Below the pieces are notes generated by a model. It made no database searches, was not told where the DNA came from, and worked only from the letters and a program-made list of their open reading frames with translations. Both the position numbers and the translations under genes were made by a program. This document shows, in pieces, positions 44,251-53,362 of a DNA stretch of 64,000 nt (position 1 is its first letter; each line of letters starts with the position of its first letter). Source of the DNA: a phage; sequence record PZ445429.1. The stretch is one strand, 5' to 3'.

Positions 44251-44484
44251 TTACGATTCTTTGAGCAAAGAAGCAAGTTCAGCATAGACTTTATCTAACT
44301 CAAAGCCAATGCGAAGAGACACACGAGTCTTCCGTTGTTTAAGTAACCATATGGAGACGTTAGGGATGCCAGCGAGACGAGGTGGTACAACCCTACATAG
44401 TTTCTCCGCAGTATCGTAAACAGAAGTTTTACGTTCTTTTACGGGAAACTTCCTTGTTTCCCACTTTTTATTCTTCGCTGTCAT
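44251..44484 (-). CDS. Hypothetical basic protein (about 77 aa from internal Met)
   Basis: ORF overlapping the 3' end of the large helicase gene; start placed at MTAKNKK. Confidence 0.35.
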   Translation of the reverse strand: MTAKNKKWETRKFPVKERKTSVYDTAEKLCRVVPPRLAGIPNVSIWLLKQRKTRVSLRIGFELDKVYAELASLLKES

Positions 44485-47380
44485 TTCTAGCCCCCAATTC
44501 AGCAAGAGCTTCCTCATGCATCTGACGTTCTTCATCTGTCATAAACTTAACTGGAATCGGCATACATTCGATCTTACAGTAAGTTCTGTACCAGTCCACA
44601 ATCTTTTCCGTATCCAGATCTTTACCGATACCCATCATGCCAAGATACATACGAGCATATTTTGGGTTAGCGCTCTGACCTGTCTTAAGGAAGAAATCCT
44701 TCTTCTTATTCTTAAGAGCTTCGATAAACGGTTTGATTGTTACGTTTGAACACTTTTTAATATCTTCCCAGAACATGTCGTGCATCTTATGGAAGAATGC
44801 AGCTCTATCGTTTGGTTTATCCTTAATATACTGTTCAACGTGTTCCACTATTACATCTTTAATAGAATCCAGATGATAATAGCGAACCAGAAGTAACTTG
44901 GCTTCATAGGCATCTGCATGACGTGGTGCGCAATATTCAGGAGTTGAGTGCAAAATAGCTTTGATTCGCTCTTCTATATACTCTTTGCCTGCACCTTCGA
45001 TAGTTCCCCAGCTTTCGCTGAAAATATCGATAGTTGCACCCTGATCAAGCAGATAATAACGCAAAGTACTAGTATAGTTTCTAGATTCCAGCTCACGACG
45101 ACGTGCGTACAGTTGTTGGGCTAACTCAATCCAACCTTCGTCAATATTATATTGCTCGGAACCCGCAGAAAATCCACTCGTAGATTTATCAATAAAATAA
45201 TAAATGTTCTGAGCACCACGGTCGCGCCTGATTGCTTGGAAACGCATGTTTGGCGCTTGGTTTGAGGTTCTAGTGATTACGAATACGTTATCAAAATAGT
45301 TAAAGTCAACACCACTAGTTACAGATGGACTACATAACAAACAATCAATCTGTTGATCAATTAGCTCATTAGTTGTATAATCCAGAATACGTCGGATATC
45401 TATATCAGACGTAGAGTTTGAGTGAATTTCTTTAACCAACGCACCAGTATTACGACGTAACGCCATTCCCTTTTCATTCAGTTCATCTGGTCCACAGTCA
45501 GATACTAGGATTGACTTCTCACCCATCTCTAGAGATGTTTGAAGTGCAACCCAAATACTGGATTCGTCAGGGAATTCATAAGCGTGAGCTTTCGCCAGCA
45601 TTTTACGGTGATGATTATAGAATGCAACTGGTTTATCAAAATCAATCAAAGAACCATAGGCTTCAATCGTTTCTGCACTGATATCACCATCAGATAAGAT
45701 AACAGTTTTAGCAGTAATAAGGATATCACGAAGAACCTGAATACATTCACGACGGTTTTTAACAACCGGAGCGAATAACAGATCATTCATTACTGCGTCA
45801 CATTCATCAATAAAGATCGTATCAATCTGACCCACAAAGCTCTTGAACTTATGGATAGAGTGAATAGTTGAAGACATACGATCAATAGCACCACGTTTGA
45901 AGTTCAGCATATCAACTGACTTATCATACTGGCCAGCACCGAATTTCTTCGCGTTAGAAGATACAAGTGCCCTAGTATTTGTGATTGCAATAAAGTTTCC
46001 TGGAAGAACACCTGCATCTAGCCACTTAGTTACTGCTGTAGTTTTACCCGTACCAAGACTTGCCTTAACAAATGTTAAATGTCCTTTTGGGGGTACAATG
46101 TTAATTTTCAGGTACGGAACTTCTGGTGGAGAATCTGTGTCTAGACGTTTTAATGGTACACCTTTTAAGTTTGGTGGAATCTCACGTTTGGAGTTATTTA
46201 CAAAGGCTTTGAGAGCCTGCTTACGACCATTATTAAAGTAATCTTGAATATTACGACTATTATCTTTAGTCGCAATATACTCAGATAAAGCTGGTTTAAT
46301 CTCACGTTCTAACCACGTAAAGTCAACACCATCTTCTAACGCTCTGTGATAAAGTTTTGGGATAATACGCAGGTACACTCCATCCTCAGCTTCTTCTAGT
46401 TCGCTGATGGTTTCTTCCACTTTATCAGATGCAGCCTTCTTGCCTTTAATTTGATCAAGTAAGGAGTAGAACTCTTCTTTAAACTCACCTCTAGTTGTTT
46501 CAAAGTCAACTAGGTTATTAGGTAGATTCACCTTCGAACCCTTAACATATACAAGACGTGGTTTATTCTCCGCTTTAAACGGATCGACTATATCATCATC
46601 AAATAAGGGATCTGCGAAATAGTGAAGCTGAACAGAAGAATAATAAGCTAAGTCAGCAATATCAAAACCATACTTTTGCTTACTACTGTCATTGATAGAT
46701 GTAAATAAGAACTTTAACTGTCCCTGCGTTACCTTGACATTAGATTCTAGCATTAAGTGCATTCGGATACCTGGTTTTAATCCAGCCGAAGACGATGCAT
46801 GGGCAATAAACCCTGCATCAAGAGGAAACATATCCTCACTAATACTATTCAACATCTTAATAATATGACGTGCCATGCCAACAAGATTAAACTTGTCATA
46901 GCCACCAGTATCTACAATACCATCCACGTCCATAGCAATAATATGACTAGGATTGGATACATTAAAGTTTCCTCTGGTACGACGCACATTATCTTTTGGA
47001 GCTAAACATTTACCACGAATAGCTACAATATGCGGGTCTTTGGTAAGACGACGCATGATAGGTAACATTTCAGCAAGGTTTTGCGGGTCAAGTTCTTCAA
47101 GTACATCAAATTTGAAGGGCATGGAAGCTGGTTTACCTTCTGGATGCTCTTTAGAGAATCGCTTTGCAAAGGTGTAATCTTCCACTTTGATCTCTTTCCA
47201 GATGCCAGTGGCTTTATCTCTGGAAAATCCTGCGTGACCTTGTAGGATTGAGAACACAACAATACTCCTATGTTGGTTATTCGGATATCTTTCTTTAGGA
47301 CTATTCAAAAGAATAGAACAACTATTACTACCATTTACACAAACATTAATCATCATCAAGCAGTATGAATAAGTTATCAT
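44468..47380 (-). CDS. Large SF2 helicase-like protein, origin-binding-protein-like (970 aa; true start uncertain)
   Basis: Walker A SLGTGKTT and DExD-like FIDECD in the central region; N-terminal about 50 aa Cys-rich and atypical, so the real start may lie downstream. Confidence 0.6.
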   Translation of the reverse strand: MITYSYCLMMINVCVNGSNSCSILLNSPKERYPNNQHRSIVVFSILQGHAGFSRDKATGIWKEIKVEDYTFAKRFSKEHPEGKPASMPFKFDVLEELDPQNLAEMLPIMRRLTKDPHIVAIRGKCLAPKDNVRRTRGNFNVSNPSHIIAMDVDGIVDTGGYDKFNLVGMARHIIKMLNSISEDMFPLDAGFIAHASSSAGLKPGIRMHLMLESNVKVTQGQLKFLFTSINDSSKQKYGFDIADLAYYSSVQLHYFADPLFDDDIVDPFKAENKPRLVYVKGSKVNLPNNLVDFETTRGEFKEEFYSLLDQIKGKKAASDKVEETISELEEAEDGVYLRIIPKLYHRALEDGVDFTWLEREIKPALSEYIATKDNSRNIQDYFNNGRKQALKAFVNNSKREIPPNLKGVPLKRLDTDSPPEVPYLKINIVPPKGHLTFVKASLGTGKTTAVTKWLDAGVLPGNFIAITNTRALVSSNAKKFGAGQYDKSVDMLNFKRGAIDRMSSTIHSIHKFKSFVGQIDTIFIDECDAVMNDLLFAPVVKNRRECIQVLRDILITAKTVILSDGDISAETIEAYGSLIDFDKPVAFYNHHRKMLAKAHAYEFPDESSIWVALQTSLEMGEKSILVSDCGPDELNEKGMALRRNTGALVKEIHSNSTSDIDIRRILDYTTNELIDQQIDCLLCSPSVTSGVDFNYFDNVFVITRTSNQAPNMRFQAIRRDRGAQNIYYFIDKSTSGFSAGSEQYNIDEGWIELAQQLYARRRELESRNYTSTLRYYLLDQGATIDIFSESWGTIEGAGKEYIEERIKAILHSTPEYCAPRHADAYEAKLLLVRYYHLDSIKDVIVEHVEQYIKDKPNDRAAFFHKMHDMFWEDIKKCSNVTIKPFIEALKNKKKDFFLKTGQSANPKYARMYLGMMGIGKDLDTEKIVDWYRTYCKIECMPIPVKFMTDEERQMHEEALAELGARNDSEE

Positions 47381-47746
47381 ACCTCAGTGCTGCGCTCTCT
47401 TAACTCTTATCCAGATCAGAACCTAGGTCATTGGCCGCTAAGCCGATTCTGATTGCCCTCACTATCCTATTGGTAGGTGGCTACTGGACGTGTCACCATT
47501 CGCTGCTCTTTTCGTTCGCACCCCCATATAAAACTCTGCCTATATAACGAGCTAAATATGCACGGTTTGGATTTACCTTTCCGAATTCAGGGTACGCAGA
47601 TCACTTAATTGATAATTAACTAATGCAGTATAAACACTAGTAATAGTTAAAACAACCCTTAATGGGGCAGCCTAACTGTTCCGTATTGCGGATTGTAAAC
47701 AAGAAAAATTAGCAAAATCAATTTTTACTAATGTCTCTCAATTCAA

Positions 47747-47787
47747 TATAAATATTATATCAAGATTTTGAGCATCCTGCAAGTAAA
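47747..47787 (-). promoter_or_regulatory. sigma70-type promoter (TTGCAG, 17 nt, TATAAT) about 370 nt upstream of the helicase-like gene
   Basis: On - strand: -35 at 47777-47782, -10 at 47754-47759; A-tract upstream. Confidence 0.5.
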
Positions 47788-47873
47788 ATTTTTCCGAAGG
47801 TGCTATCAGTGTCTTTGAGCACAGAGAAAACCGAGCCAAAATGACTCGGTAATCAGGATTGGACTAATGAAAA

Positions 47874-48269
47874 TCAATCATCATTTAGGCCTGGAACATA
47901 GATCCCAATGCGATTTAATTTACCTTTAGCTTCTTCGAGAATATCTTCGGTGTACTCCCAAATATCATCTTCTACTTGCAAAAGATAAGGGGATTCACCA
48001 GTTTCGGGGTCACGTGTAATGGCTAAGCCACGTGGATGGAATATAGAGAAGTTGAGGGCAACAATCAAGCCCATACTGGACAATTCATTCCAGTCAGCTT
48101 CCCAACCATCATCTTCATCTTCGTCCACAAAGACACCTACACTAGGGTCTGTTACAGAAGTAAACGGAAATGTTACACTAACCTTGTCAACCCCCAACCA
48201 ACGTGCAAGGAGCCCTTCAGCACGCTCTACCAAACTAGGATCTATCTGACGCCAAAATACTTGTTCCAT
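47874..48269 (-). CDS. Hypothetical acidic protein, paralog B of tandem pair (131 aa)
   Basis: Shares motifs with adjacent ORF (WNELSSMGLIVALN, ETGESPYLLQV, IGIYVPGL). Confidence 0.55.
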   Translation of the reverse strand: MEQVFWRQIDPSLVERAEGLLARWLGVDKVSVTFPFTSVTDPSVGVFVDEDEDDGWEADWNELSSMGLIVALNFSIFHPRGLAITRDPETGESPYLLQVEDDIWEYTEDILEEAKGKLNRIGIYVPGLNDD

Positions 48270-48278
48270 TCTGCCTCC

Positions 48279-48707
48279 TTAAGCAGTTAAACCTGGGATC
48301 ATATACCCTAAACGACGAAGTTTCTGAATCCCCTCATTTACTTCTTCGGGCGAATATGACCAGCCCTCACGTTCATTTACCTGGAAAGCAGGAGCTTCAC
48401 CAGTGCGATAGTTTACAATAAGACGGTGATTTGCAGGCATAAACAGCTTATGGTTCAAGGCAAAAACCAGACCCATTTCATCGAGTTCTTTCCAGTCTAC
48501 AATTTCTTCTACTCCCTCACCTAAATCCACGCTAACTCCAATACATGGAGCTTCCTCTAGTGGGCCTTTAAAGGATAGGAAGATATCGTTATTCTCACAC
48601 CAAATCTTAAGCAGATTGATGGTTTCATTATACATACCATTAGGGAGAGAACGCCAGAAGTTGAGGAGCATAGGGTTTACCTCTTTCATGAAAAGATTAT
48701 CGAACAT
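48279..48707 (-). CDS. Hypothetical acidic protein, paralog A of tandem pair (142 aa)
   Basis: Shares motifs with adjacent ORF (WKELDEMGLVFALN, RTGEAPAFQV, LGYMIPGL). Confidence 0.55.
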   Translation of the reverse strand: MFDNLFMKEVNPMLLNFWRSLPNGMYNETINLLKIWCENNDIFLSFKGPLEEAPCIGVSVDLGEGVEEIVDWKELDEMGLVFALNHKLFMPANHRLIVNYRTGEAPAFQVNEREGWSYSPEEVNEGIQKLRRLGYMIPGLTA

Positions 48708-53010: not shown

Positions 53011-53032
53011 TATACCCTCCTTCTCTAACTAA

Positions 53033-53072
53033 GACTACTATTATAACTCATTCGAAGGCGGATGTCAACAAT
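53033..53072 (-). promoter_or_regulatory. Consensus sigma70 promoter (TTGACA, 17 nt, TATAAT) for nrdD
   Basis: On - strand: -35 at 53063-53068, -10 at 53040-53045. Confidence 0.65.
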
Positions 53073-53112
53073 ATTTTACTATAAAGTTCTGTAACATGAT
53101 CTGAGTCAAAAA

Positions 53113-53150
53113 ATTTTATTTGCCAACCTCTACTAAAAATAGTATAATCA
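53113..53150 (+). promoter_or_regulatory. sigma70-type promoter (TTGCCA, 17 nt, TATAAT)
   Basis: -35 at 53120-53125, -10 at 53143-53148; A/T-rich upstream. Confidence 0.55.
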
Positions 53151-53253
53151 CGCATCCGTGTACGCGATATAAAATGATTATCTAGTACCATACATCTCCC
53201 AATAAAAGCAAGCAAATTTTTTATTTAAATGCAATATCATAGGCTTATTTAAA

Positions 53254-53291
53254 ATTGTAGTTGCTTTCTCCCGTATATATTGGTATAATAT
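53254..53291 (+). promoter_or_regulatory. sigma70-type promoter (TTGCTT, 17 nt, TATAAT) for phoH block
   Basis: -35 at 53261-53266, -10 at 53284-53289; aaaatt upstream element. Confidence 0.6.
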
Positions 53292-53362
53292 ATTTGTAAG
53301 TTGATAAACAAGATCTTTTTGTTGATCCTCTGTTAGCGAAGTACACTATAGGAGTGTTATTT

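Follow-up and report, generated by a model that had tools for sequence, protein, structure and literature searches.

The closest described counterparts of the element reported here are the ColE1 RNA II transcript, the transcription-dependent origins of phages T4 and T7, the initiator/origin pairs of lambdoid phages and the large structured RNAs carried by other phages, among which ROOL and GOLLD are of unknown role. Phage T5 has served as a model phage for seventy years and, to our knowledge, it is still unknown how and where its DNA replication starts. Here, we analysed a stretch of 64,000 nucleotides (nt) of phage DNA (sequence record PZ445429.1; 'the window' hereafter, to which all coordinates refer), in which the 701 bases tested (47200-47900) are 100% identical to Salmonella phage bux, a T5-like member of the Demerecviridae (Epseptimavirus). 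The largest gene-free stretch of this window, located directly upstream of the gene for the helicase D2, appears to be no empty spacer, but to hold a conserved folded RNA that comes in swappable versions. We consider it probable that this tract encodes a conserved structured RNA in the sense of D2, that the RNA is transcribed from a promoter at 47782-47754 as a D2 leader of about 490 nt, and that it works with D2.

How does this locus compare with the known systems? In the way it would operate, the element comes closest to ColE1 RNA II or to the T4 and T7 origins that depend on transcription. As for RNA II, a transcript of about 500 nt would be made by the host RNA polymerase from a strong promoter upstream of replication functions, and defined stem-loops, which are needed in ColE1, are present. 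Unlike for RNA II, no mapped origin, RNA-DNA hybrid, RNase H cutting or antisense regulator is in evidence here, a relation in sequence or in Rfam is absent, and the element precedes a helicase gene, of which it is probably the leader. With the T4 oriF and oriG R-loops and the T7 primary origin promoters, it would share a promoter that lies among the replication genes of a lytic phage and a transcript proposed to start replication; those origins need a promoter and an unwinding element but are not known to need a conserved RNA fold, whereas here the fold itself is conserved. The matching of variants resembles that of the lambdoid pairs of O protein and iterons, in which a cis element by the initiator gene exists in several versions, each with a matching variable segment of the initiator. 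The lambda element, however, consists of repeated DNA sites inside the gene, whereas here we found no repeats, the pairing is strand-specific and linkage could explain the association. In form, the element resembles the large structured phage RNAs: like ROOL, GOLLD and the phi29 pRNA, it is a large and intricate non-coding RNA carried by a phage and recognised by covariation, but no Rfam model matches it even at permissive thresholds and its context is a helicase gene instead of tRNAs or a genome end. Finally, its ends pair with each other in an imperfect helix of about 40 base pairs (bp) that encloses the presumed mature part, as in ribosomal RNA (rRNA) precursor stems and at the RNase III sites of T7 early mRNA, with the difference that cleavage is only predicted here; we know of no RNase III consensus that could serve for testing.

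The leader is read from the minus strand and consists, from 5' to 3', of a hairpin (P1), a small domain (P2) and a core of 331 nt (47649-47319). The core is closed by a long-range stem (P3), continues as an imperfect rod through P5 and ends in a multi-helix domain of about 200 nt that contains P7. The parts are listed below.

47701..47739, minus strand: P1, 5'-terminal hairpin (GAGAGA-C-AUUAGUAAAA / UUUUGCUAAU-U-UUUCUU); RNAalifold helix 1, 16 pairs, 100% paired

47652..47696, minus strand: P2, small domain with the hairpin CAG-UUAGG-CUG and the conserved ACGGAACAGUUAGGCUGCCCC; RNAalifold helix 2

47319..47649, minus strand: core, 331 nt, exchangeable cassette with P3, rod, P5 and central multi-helix domain; from the long-range inverted repeat, rod energies and identity profile

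47640..47649, minus strand: P3 5' strand, UAACUAUUAC; pairs with 47319-47328

47319..47328, minus strand: P3 3' strand, GUAAUAGUUG; pairs with 47640-47649

47594..47604, minus strand: P5 5' strand, GUG-AU-CUGCG-U (3 bp, AU bulge, 5-6 bp); pairs with 47387-47395

47387..47395, minus strand: P5 3' strand, GCGCAGCAC; pairs with 47594-47604

47415..47453, minus strand: P7, two-step hairpin with outer stem AUCAGAAUC/GGUUCUGAU, inner stem GGC/GCC, loop UUAGCG (47441-47436) and a 9-nt bulge on the 3' side; RNAalifold helices 8 and 9

47301..47316, minus strand: P8, small hairpin CUAUUC-UUUU-GAAUAG directly 3' of the core; RNAalifold helix 12

P1 is followed by a U-rich run, and at its position My1 and the Klebsiella, Providencia and Proteus relatives carry a hairpin of another sequence. 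The P2 motif is kept in My1 and in the related locus L059; in locus L087, the CAG/CUG of its inner hairpin is changed to CGG/CCG (seen by eye in the sequence, outside the scripted check described below). P8 is invariant among phages with the leader of type A (bux, T5, BF23) or type B (Gostya9 and others), so that covariation neither supports nor contradicts it. Depending on the lineage, P7 lies about 190-420 nt upstream of the start codon, and the core never overlaps the ribosome-binding site. Just past P8, UCCUA (47296-47300, minus strand) can pair with UAGGA of the ribosome-binding site (47266-47270, minus strand). Local hairpins that mask the Shine-Dalgarno sequence are also predicted in the Klebsiella, L059 and L087 relatives, with differing sequence and geometry.

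Which evidence carries this fold? Related loci were gathered from IMG/VR (31 and 35), from metagenomes (10, with few new lineages gained) and from GenBank (several); with the leader defined as the stretch between predicted transcription start and start codon, they comprise 42 distinct sequences of 471-764 nt. For the 29 distinct leaders of types A and B, RNAalifold yielded 90 pairs, 19 of them with compensatory changes. Standard pairs occupy 99.8% of the cells in the predicted structure, a fraction inflated by the prediction of the tested structure from the same alignment, versus 37-48% when the 3' partners are slid by 1-3 columns. Likewise, 19 pairs are changed on both sides in the predicted structure versus 1-4 in the slid ones, the covariation score is 0.242 versus 0.024-0.068, and the observed values were reached by 0 of 500 shuffles. 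Many of these covariation events correspond to the single split between types A and B, and we put most weight on helices that vary within the types or across more lineages.

P5 occurs in three pair states among close relatives (CUGCG/CGCAG, CUGUG/CACAG and CUACA/UGUAG). In 8 lineages with little sequence in common, a scripted check, for which the helices had been registered by hand, found 0 mismatches in 64 cells, with two or three pair types at 6 of the 8 positions. The design of this helix is constant, namely 3 bp, a bulge of 2-3 nt (AU in 7 of the 8 lineages) and 5 bp, and so is the separation of its strands (207-216 nt). The stems of P7 covary as well: in the scripted check, none of 10 lineages has a non-pair and each outer position shows 3-4 pair types, and the 12 distinct hairpins recovered from related leaders all have the loop context CUUAGCGG unchanged. 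This check was used instead of a P7 covariance model built from three type-A sequences, which was too sequence-specific (only 16 bits for type B, distant lineages missed) and gave two stray matches inside D2; MAFFT, in turn, put gaps into the wrong strand of the P7 hairpins.

An inverted-repeat search found a long-range inverted repeat in the tract. At one position of P3, A-U is replaced by G-C through changes on both sides, and T5 holds the G·U intermediate. In other relatives, P3 is replaced in place by stems of 9-23 bp with unrelated sequence (13-23 bp in L059, My1 and L087), and the span is 305-322 nt in 6 lineages. The rod could be assessed free of any alignment: cognate 5' and 3' arms pair with -27 to -43 kcal/mol versus -13 to -35 kcal/mol, mostly above -28, for arms taken from other lineages, and the duplex energy lies 3.3-6.4 standard deviations below that of shuffles in 6 of 8 lineages. 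The tract thus behaves as a structured non-coding RNA in general does, with compensatory helices above both the slid and the shuffled controls. A preliminary description of the window, made from its letters, had named a structured leader or a small RNA among the candidates for this tract and structure prediction with covariance across related phages as a check; this candidate is now strongly supported by strand-specific covarying helices across divergent T5-like phages, with P5 and P7 free of mismatches.

The pairing also tells the strands apart. G·U accounts for about 18% of the paired cells in the type-A and type-B leaders and would be C·A on the opposite strand; therefore, the fold belongs to the D2-sense strand, the one transcribed from the promoter. 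With a z-score of -4.2, the sense fold is more stable than shuffles and than the antisense fold (-2.1); thermodynamic z-scores were not relied on.

Does the tract encode a protein or a known RNA? No open reading frame (ORF) is conserved between lineages: ORFs of 20-73 amino acids (aa) vary in length, frame and presence, and match only where the underlying DNA is nearly identical. Two plus-strand ORFs of 38 and 43 aa and a minus-strand ORF of 33 aa, listed as genes in some records, were rejected as unconserved between lineages. ARAGORN detected 0 tRNAs or tmRNAs in the window. Among the 4227 models of Rfam 15, including riboswitches, ribozymes, 6S, ROOL, GOLLD and HEARO, 0 matched anywhere in the window at the gathering threshold; at E up to 10, the sole match in 47200-47950 was a sub-threshold one to the terminator hairpin, and Rfam gave nothing relevant on 9 related loci. 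As to mimicry of the host, blastn returned no match in 5,426 E. coli genomes. A literature search found no published description of the element. Hence it belongs to no described RNA family that could be tested and is apparently undescribed.

Relatives of the tract are present in 536 phage records, and a locus lacking the element, i.e. an empty site, was seen in none of them. When bux is aligned with BF23, Gostya9 and S126, the flanks are near-identical and the middle is almost wholly different between types A and B. The promoter, P1 and P2 (47828-47631) are 92-98% identical among bux, T5 and type B, as compared to 56-90% for the flanking genes, and the identity of the core to bux is 86-100% in T5 but only 28-60% in type B. 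With constant flanks and a divergent core, the latter therefore behaves as an exchanged cassette. The cassette type does not follow the genera: type A is found in T5 and BF23 (Tequintavirus) as well as in bux (Epseptimavirus), whereas Gostya9 (Tequintavirus) is of type B. A natural recombinant (L065 / L030) joins a type-A core and a type-A D2 segment with a type-B 3' leader and the first ~20 D2 codons of type B, and recombination breakpoints thus fall right at the end of the core. In addition, 51 records carry an optional module of 88 nt between P1 and P2 (97 nt counting the duplicated UUUUUCUU), inserted at window position ~47700. It is found once in each record and always at this locus, which is not the pattern of a multi-copy mobile miniature element. 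The module, present in S126, Gostya9 and three further loci of our collection, occurs on both type-A and type-B backgrounds and has a hairpin of its own, AUUUACGG...CCGUAAAU.

Is the cassette linked to D2? The gene is positioned as follows, outside the RNA.

44468..47257, minus strand: D2 helicase gene ('replication origin binding protein', 929 aa); PHROG 3712, weak Pfam Herpes_ori_bp match at residues 391-533

The D2 protein of T5 is a biochemically characterised bipolar helicase that was proposed to act in replication initiation (PMC3632103). The label 'origin-binding' derives from a Pfam match of 22 bits to the UL9 family of herpesviruses, which lies within the helicase motor (residues 391-533), and solved UL9 structures match D2 only at E = 0.007. 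The N-terminal 390 residues have distant relatives with PriCT-2, VapE or DUF5906 domains, by which the N-terminal domain appears to be primase-like; a word-indexed protein search with this domain returned two fragments only. Residues ~351-400 (window 46058-46207), just before Walker A, are 96% identical within type A, 94% within type B and 66% between the types, and the C-terminal half of the protein is nearly the same in both (~100% identity). Each RNA lineage carries a version of residues ~351-400 that is specific to it. Among 20 distinct loci, we found 0 discordant pairs of cassette and segment, despite the type-B patch that lies in between in L065. This concordance fits co-adaptation.

The borders of the tract follow from the start of D2, which is GTG 47257 on the minus strand and not ATG 47380.

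47255..47269, minus strand: Shine-Dalgarno AGGAG (47269-47265) and GTG start codon (47257-47255) of D2; from annotated starts and the protein alignment

The records of T5, BF23, Gostya9 and S126 annotate the start at the equivalent GTG (927-929 aa), the alignment of the D2 protein family begins with M-F-S/T-I-L at this codon, and My1 and the Klebsiella relatives have ATG where bux has GTG. With this start, the non-coding tract comprises 47258-47873 (616 bp) and the leader about 490 nt. The preliminary description had delimited the tract at 47381-47873. That interval indeed contains zero ORFs of at least 60 aa, as it had stated, and is the larger of just two gaps of at least 200 nt without an ORF of at least 70 aa in the 64-kb window; the tract is thus real, but was drawn too short. 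Its leader of about 370 nt or more, longer if the helicase started further downstream, becomes about 490 nt with GTG 47257. The 'Cys-rich first codons' that it ascribed to the helicase, by contrast, belong to the RNA according to the relatives and the protein alignment: the coordinate 47381 falls within the core, of which the 3' third (47380-47319) had been read as helicase coding. The ORF of 970 aa overcalls D2 by 41 codons (47258-47380, minus strand), and the additional codons correspond to the 3' strand of the rod plus hairpin P8. In several GenBank records, Sw2 and PMBT31 among them, D2 is given in the long version or ORFs of 33-43 aa are called inside the tract. Current annotations at the locus are blank, contain spurious small ORFs or extend D2 over the tract.

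At its upstream end, the tract contains the signals below.

47830..47850, minus strand: intrinsic terminator (ACCGAGUCAUUUUGGCUCGGU plus U run) of the upstream pair of DUF7415 genes; from a terminator scan, annotated in T5, BF23 and Sw2, hairpin kept in relatives

47754..47782, minus strand: sigma-70 early promoter with -35 TTGCAG (47782-47777), 17-nt spacer and extended -10 TGaTATAAT (47762-47754); from the sequence and the T5 annotation

47747, minus strand: predicted transcription start (A, 7 nt past the -10), placed by a spacing rule

The TG of the extended -10 lies at 47762-47761 and an A/T tract lies upstream at 47783-47795. The position of the promoter had been given correctly in the preliminary description (-35 at 47777-47782, -10 at 47754-47759, minus strand), although 'near-consensus' was generous, as the -35 TTGCAG has only 3 of 6 consensus matches. 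A generic scan did not list the site, and the region has about as many generic promoter matches as chance would give (4 found versus 3.7 expected). The promoter stretch is 92-98% identical among bux, T5 and type-B phages, TTGnnn-N16-18-TATAAT is found at the equivalent place in nearly all of the ~80 related loci scanned (42 distinct leaders), and both a promoter and a terminator are annotated at this place in the T5 reference record. The promoter is credible because of this conservation of position and the T5 annotation; by spacing and position, it would be a sigma-70 promoter of the T5 early type, with predicted activity. The initial transcribed motif UUGAGAG is common to most leaders. In bux and T5, terminator and promoter scans and the sequence gave no terminator and no convincing promoter between the RNA and the D2 start; therefore, D2 would be translated from this transcript and the RNA would be the D2 leader. 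P1 does not have the features of an intrinsic attenuator or terminator, as its stem is A/U-rich with G·U and the scan called only the hairpin at 47850-47830.

Is this arrangement confined to the close relatives of T5? T5, My1 and phages of Klebsiella, Proteus, Providencia, Vibrio and Aeromonas have a long non-coding gap immediately before D2, and the upstream neighbours and their orientation differ among these phages. The gaps have the following lengths in four of the distant relatives.

Vibrio phage Brizo, gap upstream of D2: 712 nt

Vibrio phage JSF10, gap upstream of D2: 1100 nt

Vibrio phage D145, gap upstream of D2: 728 nt

Aeromonas phage TS3, gap upstream of D2: 1590 nt

The Vibrio phages Brizo, Pontus and VPT02 have a 5' portion of ~125 nt (97% identity) and a 3' portion of ~35 nt in common, between which lie unrelated stretches of 500-680 nt, and a hairpin covaries among Brizo, VF16 and PVo5. 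Constant flanks around a variable middle recur in all five of these phages, with at least three unrelated middles. The Vibrio and Aeromonas relatives share the layout of the enterobacterial RNA; for the Vibrio elements, this is a likeness of design and not an established homology. Aeromonas phage vB_AdhS_TS3 has a non-coding element of ~1.25 kb upstream of D2 (L076:280-1525), with a fold z-score of -4.5 and a 10-bp hairpin with a UUAGCG loop. The TS3 element also contains a perfect long-range stem of 13 bp, GCACCUGAUAGGU / ACCUAUCAGGUGC, around ~600 nt, and three occurrences of UUAGCGG.

The fold is well supported, and its predicted function is most likely that of a D2-coupled RNA in replication initiation or in the control of D2. 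We tentatively prefer a mechanism in which the folded transcript, an R-loop or a displaced strand is the site where D2 starts replication. The host RNA polymerase would transcribe the element early from the promoter at 47782-47754. The closing rod of ~40 bp may be a substrate of a double-strand-specific RNase, which it resembles, and its cleavage would free the core as a stable RNA, as rRNA precursor stems do; the D2 mRNA left after cleavage would begin near P8. Working together with D2, the RNA would then, by transcription and folding, supply a specific site at which D2 could start phage DNA replication, be it the RNA itself, an R-loop or the displaced DNA strand of the same sense, and every cassette would have a D2 variant that matches it. 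Within this picture, the nearest alternative is that D2 binds its own leader and thereby regulates itself. We regard as more doubtful the broader idea that the RNA stands for an undescribed large class (~330 nt in T5 and bux, up to ~1.2 kb in Aeromonas) that acts as a specificity element of D2, the origin being set by a folded transcript, R-loop or displaced strand and not by DNA repeats, and the cassettes co-evolving with the D2 segment. The remaining probability falls to a cis-regulatory leader, to a trans-acting RNA unrelated to D2 and to other D2-coupled roles such as autoregulation.

Several observations weigh against a replication role of this kind or narrow the ground on which it stands. 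The cumulative GC skew does not turn at the tract, but near 25 kb and 53-55 kb, where the gene orientation flips. A direct-repeat search of the tract, which the preliminary description had suggested for iterated binding motifs, found no iterons or repeated motifs, only four two-copy direct repeats of 9-15 nt at a level expected by chance. The tract thus lacks the repeated initiator-binding motifs of an iteron-type origin, and a classical iteron origin is unlikely because of this lack of repeats and because the constraint is on pairing and not on sequence. The replication origin that the preliminary description had also named as a candidate is a possible reading: iterated motifs and a turn of the skew are missing at the tract, but the element keeps its place next to the presumed initiator D2 and its variants travel with the variable D2 segment. 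According to a recombineering study, a strand bias in T5 points to replication that is mainly unidirectional and starts from a genome end, which disfavours a central origin (PMC10055335). Where the RNA starts, how it is processed and how stable it is are predictions. The G·U pairs tell which strand folds, but not whether it is RNA or DNA, and a displaced DNA strand of the same sense could fold alike. The co-segregation of cassette and D2 segment, which are 1.2 kb apart, may be plain linkage. Fold z-scores are weak or modest in several lineages and non-significant for three Vibrio gaps. Finally, terminator-like hairpins lie between element and D2 in TS3 and Vibrio phage D145, and a consensus promoter lies directly before D2 in Proteus phage Stubb (all seen by eye); co-transcription with D2 is therefore not universal, and for this reason control of D2 translation is probably not the conserved role.

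The last point bears on a purely cis-acting leader, which would set the amount of D2 through attenuation at P1, mRNA stability or access to the ribosome-binding site, the RNA having no role of its own. We consider this unlikely. It would account for the translation of D2 in bux and T5 from this very transcript with nothing intervening, for the short hairpins predicted to mask the Shine-Dalgarno sequence in several lineages (e.g. UCCUA/UAGGA in bux and UUCUUC/GGAGAA in Klebsiella) and for the U-rich run after P1. However, a fold of 330 nt, and of up to ~1200 nt in Aeromonas, exceeds the needs of such control, the large core keeps clear of the ribosome-binding site, the masking hairpins are local and differ by lineage, the A/U-rich P1 stem is not called as a terminator, and the TS3 and D145 terminators and the Stubb promoter stand between element and D2. 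A free-standing trans-acting RNA unrelated to D2, e.g. a scaffold or a decoy or sponge for a host factor or defence system, with the adjacency to D2 being inherited gene order, seems quite unlikely to us. The closing stem would delimit the core like an excisable unit, some relatives appear to give the element its own terminator, and very different cassettes between constant flanks, in enterobacterial and in Vibrio phages, form a pattern typical of diversifying selection. Against it, the adjacency to D2 survives rearrangement of the neighbourhood, the cassette type travels with the D2 segment, and similarity to any E. coli sequence that could be mimicked is absent.

A classical double-stranded DNA origin bound by D2, in which the RNA helices are incidental, is very improbable. 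The tract does adjoin a gene annotated as origin-binding protein, its promoter region is A/T-rich and old electron-microscopy work reportedly located one T5 origin at about mid-genome, but there are no iterons or direct repeats beyond chance, the skew does not turn here and the label of D2 goes back to the 22-bit match in the helicase motor; moreover, the signal is base-pairing of one strand with G·U, in which the sequence is free as long as pairing is kept, unlike a double-stranded protein-binding site. That the tract is a non-functional spacer or a decayed mobile element is hardly credible: cassette replacement and the optional 88-nt insert demonstrate tolerance of large changes, but parts of the tract exceed the neighbouring genes in conservation, compensatory changes preserve the helices across large divergence, and none of the 536 related records has an empty site. 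A constrained, strand-specific fold with its own promoter before D2, together with matching variants of RNA and D2, provides a concrete object for testing the preferred role in replication initiation. Even if it were unrelated to replication, the element would add a large structured RNA family to a well-studied and therapeutically used group of phages.

In the neighbourhood of the tract, the upstream genes 47874-48269 and 48279-48707 (minus strand) are paralogs with unassigned function, both matching Pfam DUF7415 and PHROG 2502. In four related loci, the place immediately before the promoter is taken instead by a gene with an HNH-endonuclease-like motif, and in three others by an unrelated small gene. 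The second ORF-poor gap of the window, 53011-53353 (343 nt), is located upstream of a gene for an anaerobic ribonucleotide reductase of 624 aa and lies near the minimum of the cumulative GC skew (~53-55.5 kb) and the flip in gene orientation.

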